The notes: generated from the letters alone by a model not told the origin. 64,000 bases of DNA from Candidatus Omnitrophota bacterium (GCA_021735655.1 JAIPGM010000001.1:192001-256000), one strand, 5' to 3'; counted from the stretch's first letter, positions 16,742-55,676 are shown. Translations and numbers: made by a program.

Positions 16742-16747
16742 AGTTAA

Positions 16748-17566: not shown

Positions 17567-17591
17567 ATAAGCAAAATTGTGAAAATTTAAG

Positions 17592-18464: not shown

Positions 18465-18467
18465 AGG

Positions 18468-20636: not shown

Positions 20637-20646
20637 AAATTTACAT

Positions 20647-39796: not shown

Positions 39797-40843
39797 TTAT
39801 AAAAATAAAGGATAAATGGTTTTGCCCGGGCATTCTTCCGGACAGGATTTTCCTTTACGAAAGGTCCGGTATTTTTCTCCATACCATATATCCTTAAAAG
39901 ATAACTTATTTATATTTCCGAGTGATTTTTTTTCGGCATAAACACAACCTAAGACTTCACCTTCTAAAGTTATAACTGATTGAACCCAAGACAGATAGCA
40001 GGGTTTTTGTTTAGTCTGGCTTTGAATTTTCTGAGGTATTTTGTTACCACTGGCAAAATTTAAGAAACTTTTAATATTGTTGGGAATTTTTATCTTACTG
40101 GAAATGCTTGAGATTTTTTCCACGAATTCTTCCTGCTCAGACTCCGGAGGAATAAGTCTTTTATTTAGTTCCGGAGTCATAAGTAGAGGTTTAAACAGCA
40201 GCTTATCTGCCGATAATTTCTGGCTAAGAGCGATCATCTCGGCAGCATTGTGGTAATTAAGATTAGATATTACGTTTACCAGAAACAAGAGAGGGTATCG
40301 TTTTTTGCCTTTTAGGGACTTTATCAGGAAGAGATTGTTTAATAAAGTATTGAAATCTTTTTTGTTTCTGGAGGGCCTGATCCTTTGGAAAGTTTCAGCA
40401 TCCGCGCAATGAAGACTTACCAGAATTTTTTTTACACCCTTTTCTATTAGCTTGGCTATATTAGTTTTATCAAGATAAAAGGCATTGGTCATTAGCTCAA
40501 CATTGATTTTTTGCTCACCGGCTATGCTTATAAGTTTAAACAGATCGGGATGCATTAGTGGTTCACCTTCTCCGGTAAATAAAATAGTGTTTACCTGAAG
40601 GGTTTTTAATTGCTTAACCAGGGCAGAAAATGTATCACAGGAGATATGCTGATCCGGTTTTTTTTTGGATATCGCCCCTGAATGATACCAACACATTTCG
40701 CAAGCCATGTCGCATTTATTGGTTATATCAAGAGTTATCTTAAGCGGTCCGGTAAAAGCTCTGCTTCGGGAAAGTATTCCTAGGAGGCGGAGCATATTGT
40801 GAGAATTTGAAAGATAGTGTAGATTGTTTTTTAACGAAAACAT
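39797..40843 (-). CDS. Radical SAM enzyme with SPASM/twitch-like C-terminal Cys cluster (same family as 12887/17592/62098)
   Basis: The motif is NKCDMACEMC (~40690-40730 on the - strand). The C-terminus is KPCYLSWVQSVITLEGEVLGCVYAEKKSLGNINKLSFKDIW...KSCPEECPG. Confidence 0.8.
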   Translation of the reverse strand: MFSLKNNLHYLSNSHNMLRLLGILSRSRAFTGPLKITLDITNKCDMACEMCWYHSGAISKKKPDQHISCDTFSALVKQLKTLQVNTILFTGEGEPLMHPDLFKLISIAGEQKINVELMTNAFYLDKTNIAKLIEKGVKKILVSLHCADAETFQRIRPSRNKKDFNTLLNNLFLIKSLKGKKRYPLLFLVNVISNLNYHNAAEMIALSQKLSADKLLFKPLLMTPELNKRLIPPESEQEEFVEKISSISSKIKIPNNIKSFLNFASGNKIPQKIQSQTKQKPCYLSWVQSVITLEGEVLGCVYAEKKSLGNINKLSFKDIWYGEKYRTFRKGKSCPEECPGKTIYPLFL

Positions 40844-41059
40844 AAGGTGATGTAATATGAGTACAATTAAAAATTATTATATCATTTTTAGCCCCGTAAA
40901 GACAGGGTTTTGAAGGGGATTTCTAGGCTTAAGACAGGCTATTGTGTTATGGTCATTAAGTATATATAATATATATTCCCAGGTAGATACACTAGTATTT
41001 TTCATAATAGTGCTAATTTTAAAGTTTTTAGTAGAATCTAACAAAGAGCTTGAGTATTT

Positions 41060-41911
41060 ATGAGCAAACCTTTATTATCGGTGATTATCCCAGCTTTTAA
41101 CGCCGAAATTTACATTGAAAAATGTTTGCAACCATTGATTAAGAATCTGTCTGATGGTTTAGAAGTAATTGTTGTCGATAATGGGTCAGTTGATAAAACA
41201 GCAGCTATTGTAACTGAGGGATACCCTCAGGTAACTTTGTTGAAAAATCAGGAAAATCTCGGTGCTTGTAGGGCTAGGAATCAAGCTATCGAAGTCTCAT
41301 CTGGAGAATGGGTTTTGACTCTTGATTGTGATGTGGTTTTGGAAGATGACTTTATTTTAAAAGTATCTCAGTTGATAGATGATCTGCCGTCTGATCGTAT
41401 TGGAATAATCCAGCCAAAAATATTGCAAGCTGACAAAAAAACTATTGATTCCTGTGGAATCCATCTTTCCTGGTTGAGGAGATTCTATGATCTTGGGAAG
41501 GGGAAAACTGACTCCGGCCAATTCAATGAATCTATCTATGTTTTCGGCGCCTGCTCAGCCTGCGCTCTTTATCGGCGGACGATGCTTGAGGATTTAAAAG
41601 AAAGTGGAGAATACTTTGATCAAAAGTTCTTTTTTTTAGTGGAAGATGTGGACTTGGCCTGGCGAGCAAATAATAGGCAGTGGCAATCATTCTTTTTTCC
41701 TTTTATTTCTTGTTGTCATATCGGAAAAAGTTCAGGTTTTCCTAAGAAATTCCGGCAGTATCTTTGTTTTCGCAATCGCTACTACACAATAGCTAAAAAC
41801 GAGGGGTTGGGTAGGTATGCCGGAAAAATTTTACCTGTGATTATATATGATTTTCCTAGGTTGGTTTATTTGGCTTTAACTAATAAATATTTCTGGACTA
41901 GAAAATTGTGA
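41060..41911 (+). CDS. Glycosyltransferase family 2 (GT-A, inverting)
   Basis: The N-terminus LLSVIIPAFNAEIYIEKCL and VVDNGSVDKT are typical of GT2. TLDCDVVL provides a DxD-like motif. Confidence 0.8.
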   Translation: MSKPLLSVIIPAFNAEIYIEKCLQPLIKNLSDGLEVIVVDNGSVDKTAAIVTEGYPQVTLLKNQENLGACRARNQAIEVSSGEWVLTLDCDVVLEDDFILKVSQLIDDLPSDRIGIIQPKILQADKKTIDSCGIHLSWLRRFYDLGKGKTDSGQFNESIYVFGACSACALYRRTMLEDLKESGEYFDQKFFFLVEDVDLAWRANNRQWQSFFFPFISCCHIGKSSGFPKKFRQYLCFRNRYYTIAKNEGLGRYAGKILPVIIYDFPRLVYLALTNKYFWTRKL

Positions 41912-43407
41912 AAACCGAAAACGGAATTACAAACCGGCGTGATTTTTGGATAAAGATTTCTCTGTTCTTTTTTGCTCTTTTTCTGCTTAGGGTATATGGT
42001 CTTAGCCGGCATGAGTTTTGGTATGATGAAATATACTCGGTTGATTTTGCCCGTTCTCCCTTGCTCAGTTGGAACGCCCCTCTTTATTGGATTATTATTC
42101 ATTTTTGGTCAAAGTTATTTGGTTTGTCTGAATTCAGCCTGCGTTTTCCTTCTGCTATTTTTAGTCTGGCTACTTGCGTAGGGACCTATGTTTTGGGAAA
42201 GATGATATTTAGCCGGAGGATCGGGCTTTTGTCAGCTTTGATCATTGGCTTGTCACCTTTCCACCTCTGGTATGCTCAGGAAGCCAGGAATTACAGCCTG
42301 GTAACTTTTTTGGGAATATTTTCTTCTTATTTATTTTTTCGGGCTCTTAATGAGAGAAAAACAATATTTTGGGTTTACTTTGTAGTAATTTCTTTGCTTG
42401 GCGTGTACACAAACTACTTTTATTTGTTTTTGTTGTTTTTTCAAGGGGTCTATTTTGTTTGCTTCCGGGGGGTCAGATTCAAGCTTAAAGAAATATGGCC
42501 TTTTTTAATAGTTCTTGCCGGATTTATGTTTTATTTTCCGGGATTTATCAGTAAGTTTGCTTTTGTAAAATTAGGTTTTTGGGTGCCTAAGCCAGAGCTT
42601 GGGGCACTACTTATTAGTTTTGAGAATTTTCTTTTGGGTTATAGCGGAAACAGATTTTTTTATCTAGTGGCTAGTTTAATAACTTTAGTTTGTATTGGTG
42701 CGTTATTATATAAAGTAATAAAGGATAAGGCTATTTGCCAGGGGGTATTTTTTTGTTTTTGTTTATCGTTTGCTCCGATATTATTGATATTTTTGTTTTC
42801 CAGTATTTTTTTCTCAATTTATTTAGATCGGGGCCTGATGTTGTTCAGTCCTTATTTTTATATTCTTCTTTCTTTGGGATTGTTTTATTTGGTTCGACGC
42901 TGGAGAATCATTGTTTTTATTTCTCTTGTTTTTTTACAGATAGTTGCTATTTTCGGATTTTATCAGGATCGGATGTATCCGCCGCTTAAGCATCATATCG
43001 GAACTTATCTTAAAAAACCGGTTAAACCGGCCATAACTTTTCTTGAGGACAATGTCCGAGAGGGTGATATTGTTGCTTATACTAATCCTTCGGCCATACG
43101 TTCTATGGAATATTATAGCCAGCGGAGATTAGCTGATTTTTATATGTTTTTTGATCCGAGCTTGTCGGAATCATCTTGGCAAAGGCCTATCCAGGAAACA
43201 GCCACTATAGTTCCATATAATAAAATAAGAGGCTTACCTGCTGAACGTATTTGGGTTATTTTTAATGATTGGGGTAGAACCGGTGGCTTGGATGAACATT
43301 CAAAAATAGTAAAGGATTGGATGGATGAAAATCTTACCTTGAAAACTTCCCGGGAATTTGATGGCTTGTGGGTATTGGAGTATACAAAGAAAGTCATTAG
43401 CCCATAG
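41908..43407 (+). CDS. GT-C fold membrane glycosyltransferase, PMT/ArnT-like (GT39/GT83 family)
   Basis: It has more than ten predicted TM helices. The first periplasmic loop carries the family hallmark RHEFWYDEIYSVDFA (DE motif). The ATGA overlap with the upstream gene indicates coupling. Confidence 0.7.
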   Translation: MKTENGITNRRDFWIKISLFFFALFLLRVYGLSRHEFWYDEIYSVDFARSPLLSWNAPLYWIIIHFWSKLFGLSEFSLRFPSAIFSLATCVGTYVLGKMIFSRRIGLLSALIIGLSPFHLWYAQEARNYSLVTFLGIFSSYLFFRALNERKTIFWVYFVVISLLGVYTNYFYLFLLFFQGVYFVCFRGVRFKLKEIWPFLIVLAGFMFYFPGFISKFAFVKLGFWVPKPELGALLISFENFLLGYSGNRFFYLVASLITLVCIGALLYKVIKDKAICQGVFFCFCLSFAPILLIFLFSSIFFSIYLDRGLMLFSPYFYILLSLGLFYLVRRWRIIVFISLVFLQIVAIFGFYQDRMYPPLKHHIGTYLKKPVKPAITFLEDNVREGDIVAYTNPSAIRSMEYYSQRRLADFYMFFDPSLSESSWQRPIQETATIVPYNKIRGLPAERIWVIFNDWGRTGGLDEHSKIVKDWMDENLTLKTSREFDGLWVLEYTKKVISP

Positions 43408-43518
43408 TAGGCCTGTGTTTTGTTGATGATTTAGCTGGGGTTATGATAAAATATGTAGACTAATGAGAATTACTGTATTAAACGAGACTCATTTACAGCA
43501 AAAGCTTAACCGAAAACA

Positions 43519-45081
43519 ATGAAAGCCTTATCTAGCAAGAAGCATTTTATAGTAATTTCATTGATAATGATTTTGTCTTTTCATTTTATAAATAACTTTA
43601 TATGGCTGGCAATTGACGATACTCCGGACGGGGTTGACACTGCTTGGCATTTGATAGAGGCCGCAAAATTCCAGATATTGTTTAGGGGGATATCAGAATC
43701 CAAACAATCGTTATTTAGTAAGATAAAACAAATGTTTTATACGTTTAGAGAAGGGAGCGGCCATATAGCTTGGCCGCCACTTATCTATCTTATTTCTTGG
43801 TTATTGGTCCCTTCTCACTTTTCGCTTTTTTCAATCAGGCTGTATGTAGATTTTTTATTTTTTTCCTTGTTGATAATTTCTGTATATTTTTTAGGGAAGA
43901 AGATTTTTAACAAAAAGACTGGTTTGCTGGCTGCTTTTTTGATAAGTTTTTATCCTTCTGTTTATTTTTCTTCTCGGCAATTTGGACTAGACCTACCGTT
44001 GACAACTTTCACGGCTTTGTGTACTTGTTTTATTTTGTATTCTGAGAGTTTTTCCCGGAGAGGCTACTCTTTGTTGTTTGGCTTAAGTCTGGGCCTCGCG
44101 ACTTGGGCTAAGCTGCAGATAGCTTTTTTCCTGCTGGTGCCATTATGCTGGGAAACTTTTAAAATATTTTCTAAAGCTGTGGAAAAAAAATCCAAATCAT
44201 TGTTTAACTTGATTCTTAGCTTGGCGGTAACATTTATTTTATTTTGGGTATATTGGGGTTCTAAGCTTCAATCAGCCTGGGTAAGCTTTTGTGAGTACGC
44301 TACGTTTCTTTATCCTTCTTTTAAGAACAATTTGTTTATTTTAAGCGAACCGGAAATACCGATATTTAGTATAAGTAATATGTTTTTTTACCCGTCTCAG
44401 ATGCTAAACTACACATCTTGGGTTCTTTTTGCCTTATTCGTAATTGCCTTGATATTATCCTGGCGATACAAAATGAAACGAAGAGGCTTCTTCTTAGCAA
44501 GTTTGATTGTGCCTTATCTTATTTATACTTTTATATCTATGAAATGGGCACGTTACACATTGCCGTTTCTTGTATTCATTGCTTTAATTTCTGCTTGGTC
44601 AATTGATAGTCTTAGGCGTAAATACTTAAAGAAATTTATGTTGAGGGGAATAATTATTTATTGCCTAGGAGTTTTTTTCATAATATCTTGGGTAATTCCT
44701 TACAATAAAACACCTTTTTTCTGCGGAGATTTTTTCGGGTATCATCTTCCTTATTTTCGTCCGCCGGCTTTTGATGCTTACGCTGAAACAGTTAGCGAGA
44801 AAGGAATCATTAACGACATTAAGGGTAAAATCAGCGGTAGCGAGGAAGTAACCATAAGCTATAATAATCACGGAGCCCGCACAGTGCTCGTTTTTTACGA
44901 CATTTTTAGTGACTATATTTTGTCTGGTAAAATAAACTTACGAAGGGACGATGAGCTAAGTTTTTCTGATGCCGACTATATAGTTTTAGGAAATCAGGAT
45001 TGGTTTGAAAAAAAAGATATTCTAAAAAAATATAAGGTTTTGTCTAAGTTGAAAGAAGAAACAGTTTTGTTTAAGGAGTAA
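43519..45081 (+). CDS. GT-C fold membrane glycosyltransferase, PMT/ArnT-like
   Basis: It is a polytopic membrane protein. The first-loop acidic motif is AIDDTPDGVDTAWHL. Its architecture (TM core plus ~130-aa soluble C-terminal domain) matches the neighbouring GT-C paralogs. Confidence 0.6.
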   Translation: MKALSSKKHFIVISLIMILSFHFINNFIWLAIDDTPDGVDTAWHLIEAAKFQILFRGISESKQSLFSKIKQMFYTFREGSGHIAWPPLIYLISWLLVPSHFSLFSIRLYVDFLFFSLLIISVYFLGKKIFNKKTGLLAAFLISFYPSVYFSSRQFGLDLPLTTFTALCTCFILYSESFSRRGYSLLFGLSLGLATWAKLQIAFFLLVPLCWETFKIFSKAVEKKSKSLFNLILSLAVTFILFWVYWGSKLQSAWVSFCEYATFLYPSFKNNLFILSEPEIPIFSISNMFFYPSQMLNYTSWVLFALFVIALILSWRYKMKRRGFFLASLIVPYLIYTFISMKWARYTLPFLVFIALISAWSIDSLRRKYLKKFMLRGIIIYCLGVFFIISWVIPYNKTPFFCGDFFGYHLPYFRPPAFDAYAETVSEKGIINDIKGKISGSEEVTISYNNHGARTVLVFYDIFSDYILSGKINLRRDDELSFSDADYIVLGNQDWFEKKDILKKYKVLSKLKEETVLFKE

Positions 45082-45091
45082 GCAGTAGATT

Positions 45092-46288
45092 ATGTTTTTG
45101 TTTCTTTCGTTGTTGCCTTTAATGGTTGTGTTTTATTGGTTCGGCCTGCCCCGAAAGTGGCGAAGCTTATTTTTATTTGCAATGAGCCTTGTGTTTGCCG
45201 CGTCCATTAGCTTAAGGTATACGTTCTATTTTCTTTTCAATATAGTGATAGTTTATGTCGGCGGAGCCTCAATGCGTAAAACCGACAAAAGAAAAAAAAT
45301 TATTCTTAAATTGTTATTAGTTTGGCTGGTTGGTAATATCTGCTTTTTCAAATACATTGGTCTACTAGCTGTTAGCATGTCGAGGATATCTTGGTTTGCA
45401 TCAATGCCAAAAATACCAATGCCGGGGATAGTTTTACCTTTAGGAATTTCTTATATAATATTCAGGCTCATACATTACATTGTTGAGGTTTATAGAAGGA
45501 ATATGCCCGAGAGTTCCTTTAGTGATTTCGGACTATATATTTTATTCTTTCCGACATTTTTAGCTGGTCCGGTTGAAAGATTTCATAATTTTCATTCCCA
45601 AACTAGAGCCCAGAAAAGTATTTCCGCGGGCACCAGCCTTGGCGATATCAATTACGGATTATTTCGCATTATTTGCGGTATGGTTAAGAAATTCATTATC
45701 GGCGATAGTTTAGCAAGATTGATAATGCCGTTGCTTAATTCACCGCAGAATTATTCGCGTTTGCTGGTGTTGGTGTCTATATACGGTTTAGCTGTACGAA
45801 TCTATATGGATTTCTCAGGTTATACTGACATGGCTATTGGAATAGCTAGATTGTTTGGATACCGGATTGTTGAGAATTTTAAAAAGCCCTTTTTTCAAAA
45901 AAATATAGCTTTATTTTGGAGAAATTGGCATATATCAGTGTATACCTGGATAAGAGATTATTTCTTTTTTCCATTTTTCGGCCATCGGGCTTCCAGTGTA
46001 AAAGTTTATGCTGGCGTGTTTTTTTCTATGCTTGTATTTATGTTATGGCACGGAGGAAACTTTAATTTTTTTATTTTAGGAATTTATCATGGCTTGGGTC
46101 TTTTAACCTGGTATGGGTTTCAGGAGATAAAAAGAAAACATCCTGCGATTCGTCGCTTGACCGTCAAGCCTTATCTGGACCCGTTGGCTATTTTTTTTAC
46201 ATTTAGTTTTGTAAGTTTCGGTTTTATTGTTTTCGCTTTGGACATTAATTGTGCAAAGGCTATTTTACAAAGAGTATTTTTTGTTTAG
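45092..46288 (+). CDS. MBOAT-family membrane O-acyltransferase (DltB/AlgI-like)
   Basis: FWRNWHISVYTWIRDYFFFPF contains the invariant MBOAT His and is comparable to the DltB/AlgI block FWRRWHISLSSWLRDY. A second conserved His lies in LWHGGNFNF. Confidence 0.8.
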   Translation: MFLFLSLLPLMVVFYWFGLPRKWRSLFLFAMSLVFAASISLRYTFYFLFNIVIVYVGGASMRKTDKRKKIILKLLLVWLVGNICFFKYIGLLAVSMSRISWFASMPKIPMPGIVLPLGISYIIFRLIHYIVEVYRRNMPESSFSDFGLYILFFPTFLAGPVERFHNFHSQTRAQKSISAGTSLGDINYGLFRIICGMVKKFIIGDSLARLIMPLLNSPQNYSRLLVLVSIYGLAVRIYMDFSGYTDMAIGIARLFGYRIVENFKKPFFQKNIALFWRNWHISVYTWIRDYFFFPFFGHRASSVKVYAGVFFSMLVFMLWHGGNFNFFILGIYHGLGLLTWYGFQEIKRKHPAIRRLTVKPYLDPLAIFFTFSFVSFGFIVFALDINCAKAILQRVFFV

Positions 46289-46307
46289 CTAAAAAAAGGA
46301 GTCACAA

Positions 46308-46544
46308 TTGAAGGACAAAATAAGAAACTTTATCATTAGCAATTTTATGTTTGATGAGGGTAGTTTAGGAGATGATGATTTACTATTTGAGACAGGGATC
46401 ATAGATTCTATGGGATTTATCAAACTGCTCGCTTTCATTGATAAGACATTTAATCTATCTATGGATATGAGTGAAATAAGCATCGATAATTTTAATACTT
46501 TAAACAATATTGTTAAGAGCTTAGAGCGTAAGATTAATAGGTAA
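46308..46544 (+). CDS. DltC-like acyl/peptidyl carrier protein (78 aa)
   Basis: It is 78 aa. FETGIIDSMGFIKLLAFI is comparable to DltC FEEGIIDSFQTVGLLLEI, which carries the phosphopantetheine-attachment Ser. It lies between the MBOAT and adenylation genes. Confidence 0.7.
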   Translation: MKDKIRNFIISNFMFDEGSLGDDDLLFETGIIDSMGFIKLLAFIDKTFNLSMDMSEISIDNFNTLNNIVKSLERKINR

Positions 46545-46571
46545 TTATTTTATAAAAAGGAGATTCGGAAT

Positions 46572-47717
46572 ATGAATTTTTCCTGGAGTAAAAATCAAGA
46601 AGAACTCAAAAGGGCGGCAACAAAATTTGCGGCGGCCAAACTCAATGATGATATTATTCAAAGGGACAAGAACGGTAAATTTTCCTTAGACGGCTGGAAG
46701 GCCTGCGCTGACTTTGGTCTCCAGGGCATGTTAATGCCCAAAAAGTATGGTGGATTGGGATTTGGGTTACTTGATATAGTAGCTATCTTGGAAGGTATAG
46801 GCTACGGATGTAAAGATAATGGACTTATATTTTCAATCAATGCCCATATTTGGGGGGCAGAGGCGCCGATTTATCATTTTGGTACAGAAACCCAGAAGAA
46901 AAAATTACTTCCCGGTTTTTGTAACGGTAGCTTAATTGGGGCAAATGCAATGACTGAACCCGGTTCAGGTTCGGATGTCTATTCCCTTAGAACTACCGCT
47001 GTTAAAAAGAATAATTATTACACTTTGAACGGAACCAAGATCTTTGTCACCAATGCCCCTTTGGCTGATATATTTATTGTTTACGCTCGTACCGCTAAGT
47101 CTCGAGGATTCTCCGGTTTATCTTGCTTTTTAGTCGAGAAAGGTACCAAGGGATTAGTTATAGGTGAAAATTTCGAAAAAATGGGGCTTAGGACCAGTCC
47201 GATGTCGGAAGTGATTTTTAATAATTGTAAGATACCGAAAAACAATTTAGTCGGTCAAAAAGGTTCAGGAGCCTTGGTTTTTAATGATAGCATGGAATGG
47301 GAAAGGGTTTTTATTTTAGCTAATTGTGTAGGTATTATGGATCGCCAGCTGAAATATTGCATAGAATACGCAAATTCCAGAAAGTTGGATACCAAGCCAA
47401 TCGGTAAATACCAATCCGTAGCCAATAAGATTGTAGATATCCAGTCGAACCTTGAAGTAAGCCGCTTGCTTCTTCATAAGGCCGCTTGGCTTAAGAGCTG
47501 CAAAGAATCGGCATCAATGGCTTCAGCAATGACAAAATTGTATCTTAGCGAAGCTTATATTAAAAGTATTCGCTGTGTCATGGATATCTTTGGTGGATAT
47601 GGATATATGACTGAGTATGAATTGGAGCGCGAATTGAGAGATGCTCTAGCGAGCACTGCCTATTCGGGAACATCGCAGATACAAAAAAATATCATTGCCG
47701 GTCTTAGCGGATTATAA
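46572..47717 (+). CDS. Acyl-CoA dehydrogenase-family flavoenzyme
   Basis: It has the ACAD N-, middle- and C-domain signatures GANAMTEPGSGSDV, GTKIFVTNA and the catalytic-base region DIFGGYGYMTEYELERELRDA. Confidence 0.8.
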   Translation: MNFSWSKNQEELKRAATKFAAAKLNDDIIQRDKNGKFSLDGWKACADFGLQGMLMPKKYGGLGFGLLDIVAILEGIGYGCKDNGLIFSINAHIWGAEAPIYHFGTETQKKKLLPGFCNGSLIGANAMTEPGSGSDVYSLRTTAVKKNNYYTLNGTKIFVTNAPLADIFIVYARTAKSRGFSGLSCFLVEKGTKGLVIGENFEKMGLRTSPMSEVIFNNCKIPKNNLVGQKGSGALVFNDSMEWERVFILANCVGIMDRQLKYCIEYANSRKLDTKPIGKYQSVANKIVDIQSNLEVSRLLLHKAAWLKSCKESASMASAMTKLYLSEAYIKSIRCVMDIFGGYGYMTEYELERELRDALASTAYSGTSQIQKNIIAGLSGL

Positions 47718-47718
47718 T

Positions 47719-49302
47719 ATGGAATACCGATTACCGACATTATTGCGGCAAAGCGCAAAGAGTCAACCTTTTAAAGTTGCCATTAGACAGGGCGAAGAAG
47801 AACTTTCATATGAAGATTTGAATTTGTTGAGTGATAAGTTGGCCTCTTGCTTAGTCGATAAAGGCCTAAAGGTTGGCGACAGAGTAGGAATATATATAGA
47901 TAAATCGATTGATGCTGTTATTGCTATATTTGGTATTTTAAAATCGGGCGGTTGTTATGTTTCTTTGGATCCTTTGGATAATTCCCGGAGGCAGACCTTA
48001 ATTGTTAAGGATTGTTCATTGAAATATTTGATTTCTTCTTCAAAAAAGTTACCATCTCTGGTTAAAATAATACGCGGTATAGATAGTCTAGAGTATATAT
48101 TTGTAGTTGACGCCAACAAAAAAGAAAGTAGCAGGGATTGGTGCGACATTAAGATGGTTTTTAAAAAGGAGATATTTAATTCAGATGTTAGCATTTCCCC
48201 AAGGTCGAGAAGATTAAAAGACAACAACTCGGCATATATACTTTATACTTCTGGTTCAACCGGAAAACCCAGAGGAGTAGAGATTAGTCATCGGGCTTCA
48301 CTTGCTTTCATAAATTGGGCCAATAAGTATTTTAATATTACTAAAGCCGACATTGTGGCGGCTCAGTCTCCGTTTCATTTCGACCTTTCCATTTTTGATA
48401 TTTTCGTCAGCATAAAGGCCGGCGCGACCATTTGTATTGTTCCTCAGTCTTTATCAATTTTTCCTAAATCTTTGGCAGATTTTATCGAGAGCCAGAAAAT
48501 TAGCACTTGGTATTCTACACCTTCGGTTTTAATCAAGCTTCTTTACTACGGTAATCTTCAGAAAAGGAATTTATCAGCCCTAAAAAGAATTATTTTCGCC
48601 GGTGAGGTATTTCCCCCAAAGCATCTGCATAAGCTAATGAAGATATTGCCGGGAGCTAAATACTATAATTTATACGGACCTACCGAAACGAATGTCTGTA
48701 CTTGTTATTTTTTAAAGCGTATTCCTAAGGTAGATAAACCGATCCCGATAGGGTGTCCTTGTCGCGGCCAATATATTTTCATAGTTGATAAGGCTGGCAA
48801 TCTTGTTAAAAACGGTCAATCGGGCGAATTATGTGTTAGCGGACCCACACTTATGCAGGGATACTGGAATAATTCTCAGGCAACCGAGAAAGCTATGATT
48901 AAGCTCAATTTTTTAAATAAAGCCAGTAAGGTATATAGAACTGGTGATTTGGCCAAAATTAGAAAAAACGGAGATATTCTTTATTGTGGCCGTAATGATG
49001 AAATGTTAAAGGTAAGGGGATATCGGGTTGAGCCGGCTGAAATTGAAGCAGTTTTGCATTCATGTCCGGGAATAAAAGAAGCAGCTGTGGTAGGAGTCTC
49101 AGCTGATGCAGCTGGGGACAGAATCAAAGCCGTGATTAGCCTAAAAACTAACTATTCTGTTTCTGAGAGTAAGGTAAAGCTTTTTTGTTCCAGGCAGTTG
49201 CCTTCCTATATGGTTCCTGCGGAAATATTTTTTAAAAAGTCGTTACCTCGGCTTTCTACCGGAAAAATTGATAGGAAGAAATTGAAAACAATTCGAAGAT
49301 GA
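47719..49302 (+). CDS. AMP-dependent adenylation enzyme (DltA-like carrier-protein ligase)
   Basis: Adenylation core motifs are present: YTSGSTGKPRGV (A3), YGPTETN (A5), YRTGDLAKI, GRNDEMLKVRGYRVEPAEIE (A8) and LPRLSTGKIDRKKL (A10). The ATG at 47719 is preferred over the overlapping ORF-track start 47695. Confidence 0.8.
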   Translation: MEYRLPTLLRQSAKSQPFKVAIRQGEEELSYEDLNLLSDKLASCLVDKGLKVGDRVGIYIDKSIDAVIAIFGILKSGGCYVSLDPLDNSRRQTLIVKDCSLKYLISSSKKLPSLVKIIRGIDSLEYIFVVDANKKESSRDWCDIKMVFKKEIFNSDVSISPRSRRLKDNNSAYILYTSGSTGKPRGVEISHRASLAFINWANKYFNITKADIVAAQSPFHFDLSIFDIFVSIKAGATICIVPQSLSIFPKSLADFIESQKISTWYSTPSVLIKLLYYGNLQKRNLSALKRIIFAGEVFPPKHLHKLMKILPGAKYYNLYGPTETNVCTCYFLKRIPKVDKPIPIGCPCRGQYIFIVDKAGNLVKNGQSGELCVSGPTLMQGYWNNSQATEKAMIKLNFLNKASKVYRTGDLAKIRKNGDILYCGRNDEMLKVRGYRVEPAEIEAVLHSCPGIKEAAVVGVSADAAGDRIKAVISLKTNYSVSESKVKLFCSRQLPSYMVPAEIFFKKSLPRLSTGKIDRKKLKTIRR

Positions 49303-49452
49303 AAAAAAACCATAAAACACTCATGGTAACAATTGTTCTCTGTGGTATTATATTTATAATCAGCTATATTTTATATTTTTTTATAAAGCCTCCGCTTGAA
49401 TTTATATATCAACAATTCTAGGATGGCGAATCTTTTTTAAAGGCATGCTATT

Positions 49453-50748
49453 ATGAAGGATTACAATAAGGAGTCTCTTTTTACTGCAGCTGGAAAGTTT
49501 ATTTTTGGCACAGGTATCATCTTTTTACTGCTTTTTTTATTTTATCAGAAGTCATTAATTCTGTCTTTAGATCCTAATCCAAATTTGTCTGAAATTACAG
49601 TTGAGAAAATAAAACTTACCAGGCTTTATTTATTATCGATATCTTTGGTGTTGATTTTCATATCAGGGGCAGCAAAGATGTTGCCGGTTTTTAACCGTTA
49701 TATAAATCGAATAATGGCAATTAAACCAGTGCGGTATTTTTTGTTGATAATGCTGCCGATAGTTATTTTCGAACTATACTTTCAACCTTTAGCTTTGCAA
49801 AAACCGACAATTTTAATGCGGGATGATGATTTAATCTGGAAATTACGGCCAAATAGCGAATCTATATGGGCTGAAGCGATAGTAAAGATAAATTCCAAAG
49901 GCTTAAGGGGTCCCGAGTTAGATTACGCTAAACCGGCTGATACAAAAAGAATCCTTTATTTGGGCGATTCTATAACTTTTGGTTTTAGCTTGAAAAGCTA
50001 CGATCAAACATTTCCCTGTCAGGTTGAGGAAATTTTAGAGGAAGATAATAATAGAAAAGTTGAAACAATAAATGCCGGTGTGGGCGGTTATTCTCCCTGG
50101 CAGGAATATATCTATTTATCAAAAGAAGGTATTAACTATGATCCGGATTTAGTTGTAGTCGCTTTTACCTTAACCGATGTTAGTGAGAAGCTTGGCTTGA
50201 GACGATTCGGCGGCGACAGCGAAGGGGCTCAGCTGGCAGCTTCGGCTATTACGATATTTGATTGGTTAAGTAACAAAAGCCGCATTTTATATTTCATAAA
50301 GGAGGCGGTTACTAACCTAAGATTCAACGGCGATATTGAAAAAATGGTACCGGTTGAAGAAGGGCTTAAAATTACCCAGCTAATAGATGAAGCAAACGAT
50401 CCGGACATTAAAAATGCATGGGAGATTACCTTAAATAATCTTGGTAAAATATTCGATTTTTGTAAAAGTGGAAATGTCCCGGTAATATTAGTTATTTTTC
50501 CGGTAGCGTCTCAATTTGATGATGTTGAGAACATGTCAGGGCCACAACTTTTTGTGAGCAGGTTTGCTAGTAAAAAAAATGTTCTGTCATTGGACTTGCT
50601 GCCTTTGTTATCTCAGAGAGTCAAAAATAAAAAAGTAGACCTAGAAGATTATTTTTTGGGTCCACTTCACTTATCAGCTGAGGGAAATAAGGTAGTTGCT
50701 GAATTAATAGCTGACTTTATTAAGGAAAGTAATATTTTATATTTTTGA
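49453..50748 (+). CDS. SGNH/GDSL-fold hydrolase/acyltransferase with N-terminal membrane anchor (DltD-like role)
   Basis: Two N-terminal TM helices are followed by SGNH block I ILYLGDSITFG, then a GxxG block AGVGG and the C-terminal LGPLHLSAEGN (DxxH-like). Confidence 0.55.
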   Translation: MKDYNKESLFTAAGKFIFGTGIIFLLLFLFYQKSLILSLDPNPNLSEITVEKIKLTRLYLLSISLVLIFISGAAKMLPVFNRYINRIMAIKPVRYFLLIMLPIVIFELYFQPLALQKPTILMRDDDLIWKLRPNSESIWAEAIVKINSKGLRGPELDYAKPADTKRILYLGDSITFGFSLKSYDQTFPCQVEEILEEDNNRKVETINAGVGGYSPWQEYIYLSKEGINYDPDLVVVAFTLTDVSEKLGLRRFGGDSEGAQLAASAITIFDWLSNKSRILYFIKEAVTNLRFNGDIEKMVPVEEGLKITQLIDEANDPDIKNAWEITLNNLGKIFDFCKSGNVPVILVIFPVASQFDDVENMSGPQLFVSRFASKKNVLSLDLLPLLSQRVKNKKVDLEDYFLGPLHLSAEGNKVVAELIADFIKESNILYF

Positions 50749-51620
50749 CTTTTATCAAAATGAGTAAAACCTTAAATATTGAAGATTTGGATAGGGCTGT
50801 ACTTAGGAAATTGGAAACTCTGCAGAGTATTTTTTCTGATATGGGAAGTGCTTTAATAGCCTATTCCGGAGGTGTAGATAGCACGCTTTTAACCAAGGTG
50901 GCCAAGGATGTTCTAAAAAGTAAGGCGGTTGCTGTGACTTCAGAGTCAGAAACTTATCCTTTACGGGAATCAAGGCAGGCTAAGGAATTGGCAAGGCAGC
51001 TGGGAATAAGGCATATTATTATTAATACCCGTGAACTAGATAATGAAGAGTTTTCTAAAAATTCACCTCAAAGATGTTATTTTTGCAAAAAAGAATTGTT
51101 TTCCAGACTTTTGGATTTAGCAAAACAGCATAGTTTAGATTATGTTGTTGAGGGCTCAAATCACGACGATCGGTCTGATTATCGGCCGGGCCTAAAGGCA
51201 ATAGAGGAACTAGGCATAAGAAGTCCTTTAAAAGAAGCCGAGCTAACCAAGAAAGAAATCAGAATACTTTCGAAGATGTTCGGTTTAAGCTCTTGGAATA
51301 AACCGTCTTTTGCCTGCCTATCTTCAAGATTCCCTTACGGAACTAAAATAACCAAAGATGGATTAATAAAGGTTGATCGGGCTGAGGGGGTGTTGCTTAA
51401 ATTTGGCTTTAGCCAGTTAAGAGTAAGAATACATGGGCCAATAGCAAGGATAGAGGTTCCCAAGGAAGATATTTCTTTATTTTTTAAGGCTGGTTTGTCA
51501 GACAGAGTTGTTGAAGAATTTAAAAAAATCGGTTTTTTCTATGTAACTTTAGATTTGGCAGGTTATGAAACTGGCAGTATGAATAAGCTGCTTAAGAGCG
51601 AGGATAAATTTGGATACTAA
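50745..51620 (+). CDS. larE: ATP-dependent sacrificial sulfur transferase LarE (nickel-pincer nucleotide cofactor biosynthesis)
   Basis: The PP-loop is IAYSGGVDSTLL. The C-terminus ...DYRPGLKAIEELGIRSPLKEAELTKKEIRILSKMFGLSSWNKPSFACLSSRFPYG...RVRIHGPIARIEV matches the LarE family consensus, including the sacrificial Cys. Confidence 0.8.
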   Translation: MTFIKMSKTLNIEDLDRAVLRKLETLQSIFSDMGSALIAYSGGVDSTLLTKVAKDVLKSKAVAVTSESETYPLRESRQAKELARQLGIRHIIINTRELDNEEFSKNSPQRCYFCKKELFSRLLDLAKQHSLDYVVEGSNHDDRSDYRPGLKAIEELGIRSPLKEAELTKKEIRILSKMFGLSSWNKPSFACLSSRFPYGTKITKDGLIKVDRAEGVLLKFGFSQLRVRIHGPIARIEVPKEDISLFFKAGLSDRVVEEFKKIGFFYVTLDLAGYETGSMNKLLKSEDKFGY

Positions 51621-52356
51621 AAGACTAAAAAAATTACTTCAGGATATAAAATCGGGCAAAAAAAATGTAGCCTCAGCTATGCGGGCATTAAAGTCTCTAC
51701 CTTTTGAGGATTTAGGTTTTGCTAAGGTGGATACTCATAGAGATTTACGTTGTGGATTCTCAGAAGTCGTATTCTGTCAGGGGAAAACTTTAAACCAAGT
51801 AACAACTATCGTTAAAAAACTTTCCTTGGTTAACTCTTGTGTTTTGGCAACTAAAGCCGATAAAAAGGTTTATAGGGCTATAAAACGAATCAGAAAGAAT
51901 GCTGTTTATTATGAACAGGCAAAAATAGTAGTTATTGGAAAAAATAAAAAGTTAAAGTCAGAAAAAACTATTTTGGTTGTCAGTGCCGGTACTTCGGATA
52001 TTCCAGTAGCCGAAGAAGCCGCGGTTACAGCCATGGTTTTAGGCAATAAAGTTCAAAAGGTATATGATGTGGGGGTCGCCGGTGTACACCGGTTGCTTAA
52101 ACATAAACAAAAACTGTTTAAAGCCAGTGTGATTATAGTTGTTGCCGGAATGGAGGGGGCCTTGGCAAGTATAGTCGGAGGGTTGGTGGATAAGCCGGTT
52201 ATAGCTGTTCCTACCAGTGTGGGTTATGGAGCAAGCTTTAAGGGACTTTCGGCATTACTTACTATGCTTAATTGCTGTGCTCCGGGAATTACAGTGGTAA
52301 ATATAGATAATGGATTTGGGGCAGGGTACGCTGCTAGTATAATAAATCGACAATGA
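51610..52356 (+). CDS. larB: Nickel-pincer cofactor biosynthesis protein LarB (PurE-like carboxylase/hydrolase)
   Basis: It is 248 aa. The N-terminal LarB-specific region contains HRDLRCGFSEVVFCQGKT. The PurE-like core is ILVVSAGTSDIPVAEEA...VAGVHRLL. Confidence 0.75.
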   Translation: MDTKRLKKLLQDIKSGKKNVASAMRALKSLPFEDLGFAKVDTHRDLRCGFSEVVFCQGKTLNQVTTIVKKLSLVNSCVLATKADKKVYRAIKRIRKNAVYYEQAKIVVIGKNKKLKSEKTILVVSAGTSDIPVAEEAAVTAMVLGNKVQKVYDVGVAGVHRLLKHKQKLFKASVIIVVAGMEGALASIVGGLVDKPVIAVPTSVGYGASFKGLSALLTMLNCCAPGITVVNIDNGFGAGYAASIINRQ

Positions 52357-53534
52357 AGATAGCTTATTTTGATTGTTTTTGTGGGATAAGTGGGGATATG
52401 ATTTTGGGGGCATTTTTGGACTGTGGGTTAGATATTGAAGATTTGCGAAAAGAATTGAATAAGTTAAAGTTATCCGATTATCAAATAAAAATTGAGAAAG
52501 TAAAAAAAGGTGTTATCTCAGGTACTAAATTCAGCGTTGACATAAAAAAACAAAAAATCGAGCGTAGCTTAAAAGATATCCTTAAGATTATAGGAGAAAG
52601 TAATTTGGATGCTGATATAAAAAAATCATCCAGAGAGACATTTGAGTTGTTAGCAAAGGTAGAAGCCGAAATACATAATCAAGATATAGAAAAAATACAT
52701 TTTCATGAAGTAGGGGCAGTTGATTCTATAGTAGATATAGTGGGAGCTTTTATAGGAATAAAACTTTTAGGTATTGAATGTATTTATTCGTCAAAGATTC
52801 ATGTCGGGGATGGCTTTGTTAGGTGTCAGCATGGTACTTTGCCTGTTCCTTCGCCGGCCACGATAGCTTTGCTAAAAGGCATTCCGATTTATTCAAAAGG
52901 GATAGACTCTGAATTGGTTACGCCTACTGGAGCTTGCATTATAAGGAAAGTTTCTAAAGGGTTCGGTCTCTTACCAGACATGGAGATAAAAAAAATAGGC
53001 TATGGCGGAGGAAGAAAAGATTTGTCAATTCCTAATCTTTTAAGAATTTTTATAGGGGAAACCGAGGAGGATAATATATACGATAATGATGAAGTAATAC
53101 TTATTGAGACAAACATAGATGATATGAGCCCCGAGGCAGTAGGCTATATTTCAGAAAGATTGCTTAGCCGAGATGCTTTGGATGTTTTCACTACTCCAAT
53201 TTTTATGAAAAAAAACCGGCCGGCAGTAACTTTAAGTATTTTGACCGAACCTAGCAAGCTCGACGACATGCTTTCTTGTTTATTCTCGGAAACAACTACC
53301 TTTGGTATAAGGATGCGTGGTTTTAAGCGGAGAAAACTTTTACGCAAGATTGCTATGATTGATACAAAGTTTGGTCCGATTGCGGTTAAAGTTGGCCGGA
53401 CTAGTGAAGGGATAAAGACTATCGCTCCTGAATATGAATCTTGTAAACAAGTTGCTCAAAAGGAAAATATTCCTTTTAAAAATATATACAGCGAAGTAAA
53501 GAAAATAGCTGATCAAGTTTTAAAAGAAACCTAA
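52353..53534 (+). CDS. larC: Nickel insertion protein LarC (DUF111 family)
   Basis: The N-terminus MKIAYFDCFCGISGDMILGAFLDCG is the LarC/DUF111 signature. At 393 aa it is the right size to contain both the LarC1 and LarC2 parts. Confidence 0.8.
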   Translation: MKIAYFDCFCGISGDMILGAFLDCGLDIEDLRKELNKLKLSDYQIKIEKVKKGVISGTKFSVDIKKQKIERSLKDILKIIGESNLDADIKKSSRETFELLAKVEAEIHNQDIEKIHFHEVGAVDSIVDIVGAFIGIKLLGIECIYSSKIHVGDGFVRCQHGTLPVPSPATIALLKGIPIYSKGIDSELVTPTGACIIRKVSKGFGLLPDMEIKKIGYGGGRKDLSIPNLLRIFIGETEEDNIYDNDEVILIETNIDDMSPEAVGYISERLLSRDALDVFTTPIFMKKNRPAVTLSILTEPSKLDDMLSCLFSETTTFGIRMRGFKRRKLLRKIAMIDTKFGPIAVKVGRTSEGIKTIAPEYESCKQVAQKENIPFKNIYSEVKKIADQVLKET

Positions 53535-53545
53535 AGGCTTAGCTG

Positions 53546-54760
53546 ATGTCGGTGAAACTTAAGCGTCTATTTGGATCATTTGTGAGATTGTGTTCATTTA
53601 TTGTGCTTATCTTTAGGCCTTACGCCGATAACGAGATTCAGGCATCTAGTGAGCCTTTGCCCGGTGAGCATAAAAATATACCGGCACCTTTCTATCCGCC
53701 GAAAAATTCCAAAATTATATCTTTACCACAACAGAAACAAGTGGTTACGACTGAAGTTTCGATAATAAAAGGTTATAATTTATATTCTATTACCAGAGAA
53801 GCTATCGATGCAATCGGTGGTATGAAAAGTATAGTAAAAAAGGGTAATAAAGTATTTATAAAGCCTAACTATGTAAGTGGCGGCCTTAATGGGCATGATC
53901 CAGTTACAACCGGAGAAATTGCTCATCCGGAAGTAGTTGCTTCGGTAGCGGAAGAATGCTTGAAGGCCGGAGCTAAAGAAGTAATAATTGGTGAGTGGGT
54001 CGAGCGTCCTTATAAAATAAACTTTGGTGGCGAGGAAGGAAAAGATGGTGCTCAAGTTAAGCATTTAATCGATTTATTAAATAAAAAATATGGACATAAG
54101 ATTTATTTGATAAATTTAATGGACCATACTACTAATTTTAAATACTTTCCTTCAAGGACTAAATTAGGCTTTTTGGCAATTCCTGACATAGTAGCTGAAG
54201 CAGATGTAATTATCTCGATCCCTTCTCTGAAAACTCATCATAAACCATGCCCGGTAAGTTTAGGTATGAAGAATTTTATGGGTATTATGCCTTCTATTTT
54301 TTATGGCGAGCCGCGGTATAAATTGCATGAAGCTGGAGTTCATCAGGTAATAGTGGACATTAACCAAGCTTTAAAGCCATCTTTAGTTGTTATCGATGGA
54401 AGCTTTGGGATGGAAAAGGGTGGTGCCTCAGTGTTTTTAGGAGGCAAACCAGTAGATGTTAGCAAGCGTATAGGAGGGTTTTTGGTGATTGCCGGGAGAG
54501 ATCCGGTGGCGACAGACGCAACTGCTACTCGGTTGATTACTAAAGATTGGGGGCCGAGACCTGAAGATTCCAATTTGGGTACTCCTTGGTATGTACATCA
54601 TCTTCGGATGGCTAGCGAACAAGGATTGGGGGTTTTGGATGCTTCGCGAATAATTATTAAGGGTGAGAGCTTAAAAAGCGTTGAAATGAATTGGCAGGCT
54701 TCGGATGATGGAGTATATCCTGAAATTAAGAAAGATGAAAATCCTAAAGACAACAATTAA
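53546..54760 (+). CDS. DUF362-family protein, LarA-related (candidate nickel-pincer-nucleotide-dependent enzyme), with N-terminal hydrophobic segment
   Basis: The DUF362 blocks are VFIKPNYVSGG...EVIIGEW and VVIDGSFGMEKGG. IVAEADVIISIPSLKTHHKPCPVSLGMKNFMGIMPS aligns with the LarA catalytic-core segment KVAAEADLLISEGFIESHFFAGFSGGRKSVLPGIAS, with His and Lys preserved. Which LarA catalytic residues these positions correspond to is from memory. Confidence 0.5.
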   Translation: MSVKLKRLFGSFVRLCSFIVLIFRPYADNEIQASSEPLPGEHKNIPAPFYPPKNSKIISLPQQKQVVTTEVSIIKGYNLYSITREAIDAIGGMKSIVKKGNKVFIKPNYVSGGLNGHDPVTTGEIAHPEVVASVAEECLKAGAKEVIIGEWVERPYKINFGGEEGKDGAQVKHLIDLLNKKYGHKIYLINLMDHTTNFKYFPSRTKLGFLAIPDIVAEADVIISIPSLKTHHKPCPVSLGMKNFMGIMPSIFYGEPRYKLHEAGVHQVIVDINQALKPSLVVIDGSFGMEKGGASVFLGGKPVDVSKRIGGFLVIAGRDPVATDATATRLITKDWGPRPEDSNLGTPWYVHHLRMASEQGLGVLDASRIIIKGESLKSVEMNWQASDDGVYPEIKKDENPKDNN

Positions 54761-55676
54761 GTGCATATTTTATTGTTTTCTTTTGATTTATTCTACTGGA
54801 GGAGATGTCCGGTCAGAAACCTCTTTGGTAATCGAAACTAATGATTTACAAGGATATTGGAAACAGGGGGTGGTTGGATCAAGAAAAGTAGTTTTTACCG
54901 ATAAGGCAGATAATTTTTCAGAGATTAGAGCATCTGTGCCTAAAGATGGAAAATATAATTTATTGGTATATCTTCATCATGATTGGAGAAATAGAGAAGC
55001 TTTCCCTGGTATTTATGTTGAAGCGGTTGATTCAAAAGGAATCCAGCATAAAGGGTATCACCTAGTTGAAAATATTTGGTATTTAGATGAAGAAGCCCAA
55101 GGTCGTTGGTTTTTTGTTTCCTTATCAAAAAATCCTTATTGGGTTCTCCCTCAAGGAGAGTTGTATTTAAAATTCTGGGCTGTGGGAAAAACCTTTCCCT
55201 GGGAAGGTCAATCCATTCCTTTAGAAGGTAAGGTTTCGATTAATAGTTTTTTTCTTATGCCGGTATTTAACTCCGATTCTGGTATGTTTTCTTTAGGCAT
55301 AATTAATCCTGAAAGCGGCAAGGGGGATTGGGAGGTTCATAATTATCATCCGTTGCATGCCACCAACTTTATTAAGACCGATAAAAAAAATGCACAATTT
55401 TTGTGTGAAACCGATATTGTGAAGGCAGGGTATTATCAAGCATTCCTTTCAGTTTTTTCGCCTTCAGGTGGTAATTTGGAGTTAAACTTGAAAGGCCAGT
55501 CAGACAATAGGGCAACCGTCATCAGATTAGATTCTAGTAAGGAGTGGTTGTTGATTCCAACCGAAACTATGTATTTAGATAAAGGCTATTATTCGTTGAT
55601 GTTTAAAAATTTAACCTCAAAAGAAGTAATGATTGATTTTGTTTTCTTAGCGCCATCGGAAAAATCTTTTAAATGA
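54735..55676 (+). CDS. Secreted protein of unknown function
   Basis: The ATG at 54735 gives MKILKTTIKCIFYCFLLIYSTGG, a signal peptide. The ORF-track start 54705 would overlap the upstream gene further. The rest of the protein is Trp/Tyr-rich and beta-rich. Confidence 0.4.
   Translation: MKILKTTIKCIFYCFLLIYSTGGDVRSETSLVIETNDLQGYWKQGVVGSRKVVFTDKADNFSEIRASVPKDGKYNLLVYLHHDWRNREAFPGIYVEAVDSKGIQHKGYHLVENIWYLDEEAQGRWFFVSLSKNPYWVLPQGELYLKFWAVGKTFPWEGQSIPLEGKVSINSFFLMPVFNSDSGMFSLGIINPESGKGDWEVHNYHPLHATNFIKTDKKNAQFLCETDIVKAGYYQAFLSVFSPSGGNLELNLKGQSDNRATVIRLDSSKEWLLIPTETMYLDKGYYSLMFKNLTSKEVMIDFVFLAPSEKSFK

Follow-up and report, generated by a model that had tools for sequence, protein, structure and literature searches.

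A proposed Dlt-like membrane acylation cassette with a proline-type adenylation enzyme and a predicted prolyl-carrier-protein dehydrogenase in an uncultured Omnitrophota bacterium

Two groups of described systems are closest to the cassette reported here. In the Dlt pathway, DltB, an MBOAT (membrane-bound O-acyltransferase), moves D-alanine from the carrier protein DltC to the tyrosine that is invariant within the FxYxxF motif at the C-terminus of the microprotein DltX, and DltX passes it on to the SGNH protein DltD; in MBOATs that use acetyl-CoA, the FxYxxF motif is fused to the enzyme's own C-terminus (PMC12148441). In the second group, an adenylation enzyme, a carrier protein and a flavoenzyme of the acyl-CoA dehydrogenase (ACAD) superfamily form the standard thiotemplated pyrrole cassette (PMC10849742). 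Here we describe a module of about six kilobases, positions 45092-50748 on the plus strand of a 64-kb stretch of DNA from a Candidatus Omnitrophota bacterium (GCA_021735655.1, JAIPGM010000001.1:192001-256000), in which relatives of proteins from both groups are encoded in one row of genes. The whole 64-kb stretch, with a GC content of 36%, is referred to as the window.

The module probably encodes a Dlt-type, carrier-dependent pathway of envelope acylation in which the cargo is an oxidised proline instead of D-alanine. An earlier reading of the window, referred to as the original prediction, had placed five open reading frames here, all of which exist, on the plus strand. It had also proposed a carrier-based module that activates an amino or acyl acid, modifies it on the carrier by means of the ACAD-family enzyme and exports it onto a polymer, and the computational tests described below support and sharpen this proposal. 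A sixth gene, encoding a microprotein, was absent from that reading. All six genes are on the same strand and are either spaced by 10-31 bp or overlap, see Table 1.

The flavoenzyme in the middle of the row matches all three ACAD domains, in agreement with the family to which it had been assigned. Its best three matches in the PDB are AnaB (4IRN, E=3.8e-117), Bmp3 (6CXT, E=3e-95) and PigA (5ZW0, E=3e-86), with identities of 46.8% (394 bits), 41.8% and 40.3%, respectively; all three are prolyl-carrier-protein dehydrogenases. Ordinary ACADs in the PDB reach at best E=6e-74, and the prolyl dehydrogenases score about 40-140 bits higher than these. Among the NCBIfam models, PigA and RedW are the best. 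Furthermore, Glu244, in the motif MEWER, aligns with a position where 5ZW0 has Glu and 6AF6 has Ala, and a Glu at this position is described as the catalytic base in the oxidation of carrier-bound proline (PMC10849742). The canonical ACAD glutamate, Glu376 in YEGT, is lost; the alignments show that this segment reads YSGTS, as it does in AnaB, Bmp3 and PigA. The gene context is also that of a carrier-linked enzyme, with the carrier gene 27 bp upstream and an adenylation gene with a proline code overlapping or abutting downstream. At the level of residues, the sequence is that of a prolyl-carrier-protein dehydrogenase and not that of a metabolic acyl-CoA dehydrogenase.

In a distance-based (neighbour-joining) tree of 86 sequences, the flavoenzyme and its MBOAT-linked relatives from three other loci (L082, L168 and L008) form one clade, which lies apart from AnaB, Bmp3 and PigA as well as from a large clade of soil sequences. 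Judged by this tree, the flavoenzyme belongs to a distinct sub-lineage of the prolyl-carrier-protein dehydrogenases.

The tree also bears on how far the enzyme would take the oxidation. AnaB is the prolyl-ACP dehydrogenase of the anatoxin-a pathway and yields a two-electron product. In PMC10849742 it is placed among the enzymes that form pyrrole. Because this enzyme is the best single match, the oxidation state of the product is uncertain, and the flavoenzyme could likewise stop after two electrons. The cargo of the same export machinery would then be a reactive cyclic imine, namely a dehydroprolyl group in the form of 1-pyrroline-5-carboxyl or one of its isomers. We know of no sequence rule that separates two-electron from four-electron enzymes. 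We nevertheless consider the two-electron product unlikely: the window enzyme falls in its own MBOAT-linked clade and not with AnaB, and, for a group that decorates the surface, a pyrrole ester would be the end point that is chemically stable. In addition, the other characterised members PltE, RedW and Bmp3 carry out a four-electron oxidation (PMC10849742).

The large clade in soil and sediment metagenome contigs (L084-L155) deserves mention in its own right. Its prolyl dehydrogenases are 52-56% identical to the window enzyme. An adenylation enzyme with a proline code is found in about half of these loci, often divergently transcribed, and an MBOAT is nearby in none of them. These loci appear to be uncharacterised thiotemplated pyrrole cassettes.

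The stand-alone adenylation enzyme had been described as DltA-like. The description as an amino-acid adenylation enzyme stands: the protein scores above the cutoff of 317 bits of the amino-acid adenylation domain model TIGR01733 and has both Asp235 and Lys517, which sets it apart from the fatty-acyl-AMP ligases that, according to the original prediction, would have spoken against the module. A DltA-type pocket, on the other hand, is not present. The pocket segment matches PltF (6O6E, E=6.7e-34) and the L-proline ligase 7THN (E=6.6e-22) ahead of DltA (E=5.7e-18). The original prediction had also suggested reading the specificity code, and with the ten Stachelhaus positions taken from pairwise alignments and a MAFFT alignment this code is DLFYIFLVCK, which is of the proline type. 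It agrees at seven of the nine compared positions with PltF (DLLYLFLVC) and at seven of nine with 7THN (DLFYVFWVC), while the code of DltA (3FCC) is DLMTFFTVA. The identical code is found in seven other adenylation domains of the fetched loci, including the MBOAT-linked L167 and L168, and the commonest code in these loci, DLFYVFLVCK (n=18), occurs in domains beside prolyl-dehydrogenase homologues. With the DltA model TIGR01734 the enzyme obtains 305 bits, under the cutoff of 560, and both its pocket code and its pocket-region matches differ from those of a D-alanine-specific DltA. Since pocket and code match the proline loaders, the enzyme is predicted to load L-proline.

The membrane-bound and carrier components, in turn, point to Dlt. 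The MBOAT contains the string WHISVYTW, with His280, and has both the Pfam and the DltB-model matches expected from its earlier assignment; the match to the DltB model TIGR04091 (LTA_dltB) covers the full length. By sequence its only PDB matches are DltB structures (6BUG, E=4.1e-27, and 8JEM), and its C-terminus does not contain an FxYxxF motif of its own. Database entries from a Candidatus Omnitrophica MAG are 100% identical to the MBOAT and to the flavoenzyme. The 78-residue carrier likewise contains the GIIDSMGF string claimed for it, and Ser34 aligns with the conserved serine of DltC; a carrier lacking this serine, the other outcome named in the original prediction as speaking against the module, is thus not what is found. 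Its best NCBIfam models are the DltC models NF003464 and TIGR01688, and its best PDB matches are DltC (8JF2 and 6BUG_A, about 3e-9), followed by PltL (1.4e-5) and PigG (1.2e-4); thus, the pyrrole-pathway carriers PltL, PigG and Bmp1 rank behind DltC as relatives. With the carriers of sibling loci that have an MBOAT but no ACAD gene, the window's carrier shares 48-59% identity, and with those of loci that have ACAD and adenylation genes but no MBOAT, at most 41%. From this difference it can be proposed that the carrier travels with the MBOAT.

The sixth gene was found in a listing of small open reading frames and encodes a protein of 40 residues, MKKNHKTLMVTIVLCGIIFIISYILYFFIKPPLEFIYQQF. Its ATG overlaps the stop codon of the adenylation gene (ATGA), and 31 bp separate its end from the SGNH gene. 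The protein consists of a single hydrophobic transmembrane helix followed by the C-terminal residues FIYQQF. These residues fit the FxYxxF acyl-shuttle motif, with Tyr37 as the predicted acyl acceptor. This is the only open reading frame of 25-90 residues in the window that combines a transmembrane-like stretch with a terminal F.Y..F pattern, and none was found in 100 Markov-shuffled windows. In each of the 14 related loci that were examined, an equivalent microprotein accompanies the MBOAT, and the tyrosine is invariant, as seen in 15 relatives. The more distant MBOATs of the same search carry the motif at their own C-terminus. Formal homology to the Pfam DltX family could not be shown, and the function is therefore assigned as DltX-like from these features and their conservation; homology as such was dropped, as neither Pfam nor hhalign extends it beyond the motif (details below).

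The gene content, the homologies, the catalytic and specificity residues and the recurrence of the cassette are direct observations. When the MBOAT was used to scan genome contigs, a tight clade of 46-56% identity was obtained, followed by a drop to at most 37%. The hosts of this clade are metagenome-assembled genomes (MAGs) of Nitrospirae, Syntrophaceae, Planctomycetia and Myxococcales. MBOAT and prolyl dehydrogenase genes were read directly together in five other loci. L082 is the most complete, with MBOAT, carrier, ACAD and adenylation enzyme at 58%, 55%, 62% and 51% identity to those of the window, as well as a microprotein and an SGNH protein. L168 has the order MBOAT-carrier-ACAD-adenylation enzyme-microprotein, followed by a TPR protein. 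In L170 (4639-16508) the order differs: carrier, MBOAT, ACAD, adenylation enzyme, a B12-binding radical-SAM enzyme, microprotein and an SGNH-TPR protein. L169 contains MBOAT-carrier-ACAD and a microprotein, with no adenylation gene within the locus. Finally, L008 (6222-11183), from a Myxococcales MAG, is reduced to MBOAT-ACAD-microprotein between Hsp70 and DnaJ genes, and no carrier or adenylation gene was found within 8 kb. In total, 21 top ACAD relatives appear to share a contig with top MBOAT relatives, 17 of them by indirect record matching, three verified directly, and one being the window's own MAG contig.

The siblings also show what can take the place of the ACAD. L167 (8001-14410) and L006 (3986-8835) are MBOAT-carrier-microprotein cassettes in which a B12-radical-SAM enzyme replaces the ACAD, and L170 has both. 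The adenylation codes in L167, L006 and L170 are DLFYIFLVCK or DLFYIYLVCK; together with the B12-radical-SAM enzymes this suggests a methylated proline or pyrrole as cargo of these siblings. In other siblings (L002, L003, L005, L166 and L007) the adenylating enzymes do not contain the amino-binding aspartate, and some are fused to a radical-SAM domain. Because the siblings swap or add B12-radical-SAM enzymes, the ACAD appears to be one module among several that can be exchanged for tailoring on the carrier, and the sequences together look like a wider family of carrier-dependent MBOAT systems.

This recurrence speaks to the possibility that the arrangement is a chance juxtaposition, in which a metabolic acyl-CoA dehydrogenase gene happens to lie inside an ordinary D-alanylation operon. 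It is true that no named family is nearer to the MBOAT than DltB or to the carrier than DltC, and that the DltA model gives its 305 bits. However, the scores with the DltA, DltB and DltC models are all far under the equivalog cutoffs, the pocket differs from DltA at the proline-loader positions Tyr278, Leu322 and Cys331, and the ACAD has the prolyl-dehydrogenase glutamate in place of Glu376. Moreover, the pairing of ACAD and MBOAT on about 20 contigs and the monophyly of the ACAD clade are hard to reconcile with coincidence. Residue and conservation data already contradict this explanation, and we regard it as very improbable.

The last gene encodes an SGNH protein, for which a membrane anchor and a DltD-like role had been proposed. 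The anchor, the SGNH domain and the position of the gene are as proposed; membership in the DltD family is not borne out. N-terminal helices at residues 12-30, 47-76 and 91-113 precede the SGNH domain, in which Ser173 (GDS, block I) and His406 (block V) are invariant in the family alignment. The only family match is Lipase_GDSL_2, and not PF04914, which we take to be the DltD family. An AlphaFold model with a predicted local distance difference test score (pLDDT) of 83 has the SGNH fold. A Foldseek search of the PDB with this model returned generic SGNH esterases, with neither DltD nor PatB in the top 50, and a structural relationship to these two was rejected on this basis. The DltD-like role is thus suggested by position and by analogy. 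An SGNH gene follows the microprotein gene in the window, L082, L166 and L170, and in L170, L167 and L007 TPR repeats form one protein with the SGNH domain. No SGNH gene was detected in the flanks of L169 and L008.

The family of SGNH proteins with three transmembrane helices (homologues P0001-P0120) contains, in the N-terminal 40 or so residues and directly after the first helix, a near-conserved L(Y/F)NEF, which resembles the FxYxxF of DltX and PatA. A role as a built-in tyrosine shuttle was rejected, as Phe replaces Tyr in several members.

We suggest the following pathway. The adenylation enzyme would activate L-proline and load it onto the phosphopantetheine at Ser34 of the DltC-like carrier. 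The flavoenzyme would then oxidise the tethered prolyl group by means of Glu244, most likely by four electrons, to give pyrrole-2-carboxyl-S-carrier. The MBOAT (His280) would pick up the acyl group from the carrier at the cytoplasmic face, and at the outer face Tyr37 of the microprotein would receive it. The SGNH protein, with Ser173 and His406, would finally move it from the tyrosine ester to a hydroxyl of an extracytoplasmic acceptor, probably an envelope glycoconjugate in whose synthesis or decoration the GT2 and PMT_2 enzymes encoded nearby take part. Proline as the substrate, the oxidation state of the product and the nature of the acceptor are predictions from homology and gene context, and the direction and steps of transfer are modelled on Dlt and PatAB.

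Several observations weigh against this reading, beyond the two-electron chemistry of AnaB. The whole pathway is read from sequence and gene context. Several scores stay under curated cutoffs: the flavoenzyme scores under the equivalog cutoffs of the PigA model NF053553 (418 of 500 bits) and the RedW model NF045652 (355 of 650 bits), the carrier obtains 44 and 38 bits with the DltC models, under cutoffs of 68 and 52, and the MBOAT has 176 bits with TIGR04091, under the equivalog cutoff of 375. The MBOAT sequence is thus DltB-like but not that of a DltB equivalog. The Pfam DltX model PF12459 does not match the microprotein, and in an hhalign comparison with Gram-positive-type microproteins only the last 12 residues, i.e., the motif, align, with a probability of 17%. 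The active site of the SGNH protein is unusual. In block III, where the oxyanion Asn is found in 34 of 35 aligned sequences, it has the sole Thr (Thr241), and in block V the triad Asp, present in 31 of 35, is replaced by Gly403, as in three other sequences. With these changes the enzyme may have adapted to an unusual acyl group, or it may be weakened. The closest SGNH homologues, at most 48% identical, have no MBOAT nearby in any of the three sampled loci, and because of this the family does not seem to be dedicated to the cassette. The SGNH protein at the same position in L082 is only 22% identical to that of the window and not orthologous. Known prolyl dehydrogenases were assayed with O2 as the electron acceptor, and Omnitrophota are mostly anaerobes. 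Finally, we are not aware of an acceptor resembling teichoic acid in Omnitrophota.

The observations on the SGNH protein would also fit another explanation, in which the product of the proline, ACAD and carrier cassette goes into a small molecule or a membrane lipid. The MBOAT would then off-load this building block to a lipid, a lipoprotein or a diffusible acceptor and not to an envelope polymer, and the SGNH protein would act as a hydrolase or have nothing to do with its neighbours. The homologues without an MBOAT, the N241T and D403G replacements and the two loci with MBOAT and ACAD in whose flanks no SGNH gene was seen all agree with this, and a pathway to natural products or lipids could account for the many radical-SAM/SPASM genes in the window. 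However, no condensation, ketosynthase, halogenase or thioesterase genes are found near any cassette, and in all descriptions to date the DltX-type tyrosine shuttle delivers to an SGNH transferase. In addition, glycosyltransferases (GT2, GT4 and GT-C) flank the cassettes of the window, L082, L166 and L170, although not those of L168 and L008. We find this explanation doubtful and give it little weight.

Transfer to the envelope thus remains the reading that we favour, and the neighbouring genes are considered with it in mind. The glycosyltransferase genes directly upstream of the MBOAT (Table 1) may encode enzymes that modify the same envelope glycoconjugate, and PMT_2 and GT2 genes also flank the related cassettes L166 and L170. 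A third PMT_2 gene is located downstream in the window, with GT4 genes and ABC transporters further off. Given flanking genes of the GT2, PMT_2, GT4 and ABC transporter types, an envelope glycoconjugate is the most plausible acceptor. Promoter and terminator scans of 40800-55000 gave counts at the level of shuffled sequence and were uninformative.

Table 1. The genes of the module and other features of the window, numbered from its first letter.
Feature	Position	Strand	Evidence
One GT2 and two PMT_2 (GT-C, ArnT/PMT-like) glycosyltransferases	41060-45081	+	Pfam matches; immediately upstream of the MBOAT gene
DltB-type MBOAT, 398 residues	45092-46288	+	PF03062 E=1.3e-20; TIGR04091 E=1.1e-51
DltC-like carrier protein, 78 residues	46308-46544	+	PF00550 E=5e-6; Ser34 in GIIDSMGF
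Predicted prolyl-carrier-protein dehydrogenase (ACAD superfamily), 381 residues	46572-47717	+	three ACAD domains; Glu244
Stand-alone adenylation enzyme, proline-type pocket	47695 (TTG) or 47719 (ATG, as in the public record) to 49302	+	TIGR01733 360 bits
DltX-like microprotein, 40 residues	49299-49421	+	one transmembrane helix, C-terminal FIYQQF
Membrane-anchored SGNH/GDSL protein, 431 residues, in the DltD position	49453-50748	+	PF13472 E=8e-10
Amino_oxidase/NAD_binding_8 flavoprotein, about 435 residues	4986-6293		
Run of very large radical-SAM genes	7073-23805		
Protein of 1284 residues, within this run	12887-16741		three radical-SAM/SPASM units
LarE, LarB and LarC (nickel-pincer cofactor synthesis) with the DUF362 protein that follows	50745-54760		all three Lar proteins above NCBIfam cutoffs
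DUF362 protein	53546-54760		follows the Lar genes
Two adjacent polytopic membrane proteins, 644 residues each	57260-61128		35% mutual identity

The Lar genes start directly after the SGNH gene and are absent from the related cassette L082. No match to a LarA-type family was found among the scanned proteins (41060-54760 and part of the remaining window). The DUF362 protein, for which no solved relative was found by sequence, is a candidate for an alternative user of the nickel-pincer cofactor. The radical-SAM run further contains an ABC_tran protein of 1155 residues and two large B12-binding radical-SAM proteins, and upstream of the MBOAT cassette in L167 there is a similar set, with an ABC gene and three SPASM genes. 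A B12-radical-SAM partner for the module within the window was considered and dropped, as the window's radical-SAM proteins are at most about 29% identical to the MBOAT-adjacent enzymes of the siblings. The two 644-residue membrane proteins lie between PMT_2 and GT2 genes and have no Pfam match. Counterparts of the Amino_oxidase/NAD_binding_8 flavoprotein are found near two other cassettes, L082 (13916-15226) and L169 (10352-11671).

In the current mechanistic literature, carrier-dependent export by an MBOAT is described only for D-alanine (PMC12148441), and in the literature that we searched the other MBOAT-SGNH pairs carry acetyl groups. A search of a partial full-text library returned nothing in which prolyl or pyrrolyl chemistry on a carrier is connected with MBOAT or Dlt systems, and no relevant paper on Omnitrophota and MBOATs, where absence from such a library is no proof of novelty. 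We tentatively propose that the window belongs to an undescribed "tailor-then-export" class of envelope acylation systems in uncultured Omnitrophota, Nitrospirota, Desulfobacterota, Planctomycetota and Myxococcota, although the case for a class of this breadth falls somewhat short of an even one. In this class, proline would be loaded on a DltC-like carrier, remodelled by an ACAD-type dehydrogenase, a B12-radical-SAM enzyme or both, and exported by a DltB/DltX/SGNH relay.

If this holds, the cell-envelope glycans of these bacteria would carry esters of pyrrole-2-carboxylate, or of a methylated or dehydro-proline. As far as the searched literature shows, no bacterial envelope with a heteroaromatic acyl decoration has been described before, nor a Dlt-type pathway that tailors its cargo on the carrier. 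The proposed pathway would also mean a new envelope chemistry in phyla without cultured models, in which an uncharged aromatic ester replaces a cationic aminoacyl ester. More generally, the cassette suggests that the Dlt-type membrane relay can carry different cargo, enzymatically remodelled beforehand, and it joins the thiotemplated pyrrole enzymology of natural products with cell-envelope acylation, two fields that were previously unlinked. The set of six genes is compact and could be reconstituted in vitro. The wider family of carrier-dependent MBOAT systems, with its swappable tailoring enzymes, could be mined or engineered for unnatural acyl groups on bacterial surfaces.

Parts of the proposed pathway have parallels in several known systems. 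AlmEFG of Vibrio cholerae places glycine on lipid A, and its final transferase is of the LpxL type and acts at the cytoplasmic face. The likeness is a DltA-like enzyme and a DltC-like carrier that aminoacylate a Gram-negative envelope. AlmEFG, however, has no MBOAT, microprotein, SGNH protein or on-carrier oxidation. In the clorobiocin and coumermycin pathways (CloN1-N7), a pyrrole-2-carboxyl group made on a carrier ends as an ester on a sugar hydroxyl of noviose. In clorobiocin the pyrrole is tailored by CloN6, a B12-radical-SAM methyltransferase, which parallels the sibling cassettes with B12-radical-SAM genes. These pathways differ in their soluble, cytoplasmic acyltransferases and small-molecule acceptor; translocation across a membrane is not involved.

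The natural-product cassettes PltF/PltL/PltE, RedM/RedO/RedW, PigI/PigG/PigA, Bmp and AnaC/AnaD/AnaB share with the window a proline-specific type II adenylation enzyme, a small carrier and an ACAD-like dehydrogenase with the relocated catalytic glutamate (PMC10849742). There, ketosynthases, halogenases or soluble acyltransferases take over the product and build it into a small molecule, whereas the window operon has a transmembrane MBOAT, a microprotein of the tyrosine-shuttle type and an SGNH protein. The window carrier is also nearer to DltC than to PltL or PigG of the pyrrole cassettes. In PatA/PatB and AlgI/AlgJ/AlgX, an MBOAT moves an acyl group across the membrane to the tyrosine of an FxYxxF motif, after which an SGNH protein completes it (PMC12148441). 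These systems use acetyl-CoA as donor, have the motif fused to a longer MBOAT, and contain neither a carrier protein nor an adenylation enzyme or tailoring step. Compared with such MBOAT-SGNH systems, the window has the MBOAT, the putative shuttle and an adjoining SGNH gene with Ser173 and His406, while the Asp of the triad is Gly403.

The closest system is DltXABCD, although the module is, by its sequences, not the Dlt pathway proper, as it fails on both D-alanine specificity and membership of its SGNH protein in the DltD family. The predicted cargo is proline and not D-alanine, and the enzyme that would oxidise it on the carrier is absent from the described Dlt pathway. The gene order is B-C-(ACAD)-A-X-SGNH and not X-A-B-C-D, and in the host, a Candidatus Omnitrophica MAG, teichoic acid is not known. 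What the two have in common is a stand-alone adenylation enzyme with a small carrier, an MBOAT of about 400 residues without a shuttle motif of its own, a 40-residue microprotein with a single transmembrane helix that ends in FxYxxF, and an adjoining SGNH gene. In the PDB, moreover, the MBOAT is nearest to DltB and the carrier to DltC.

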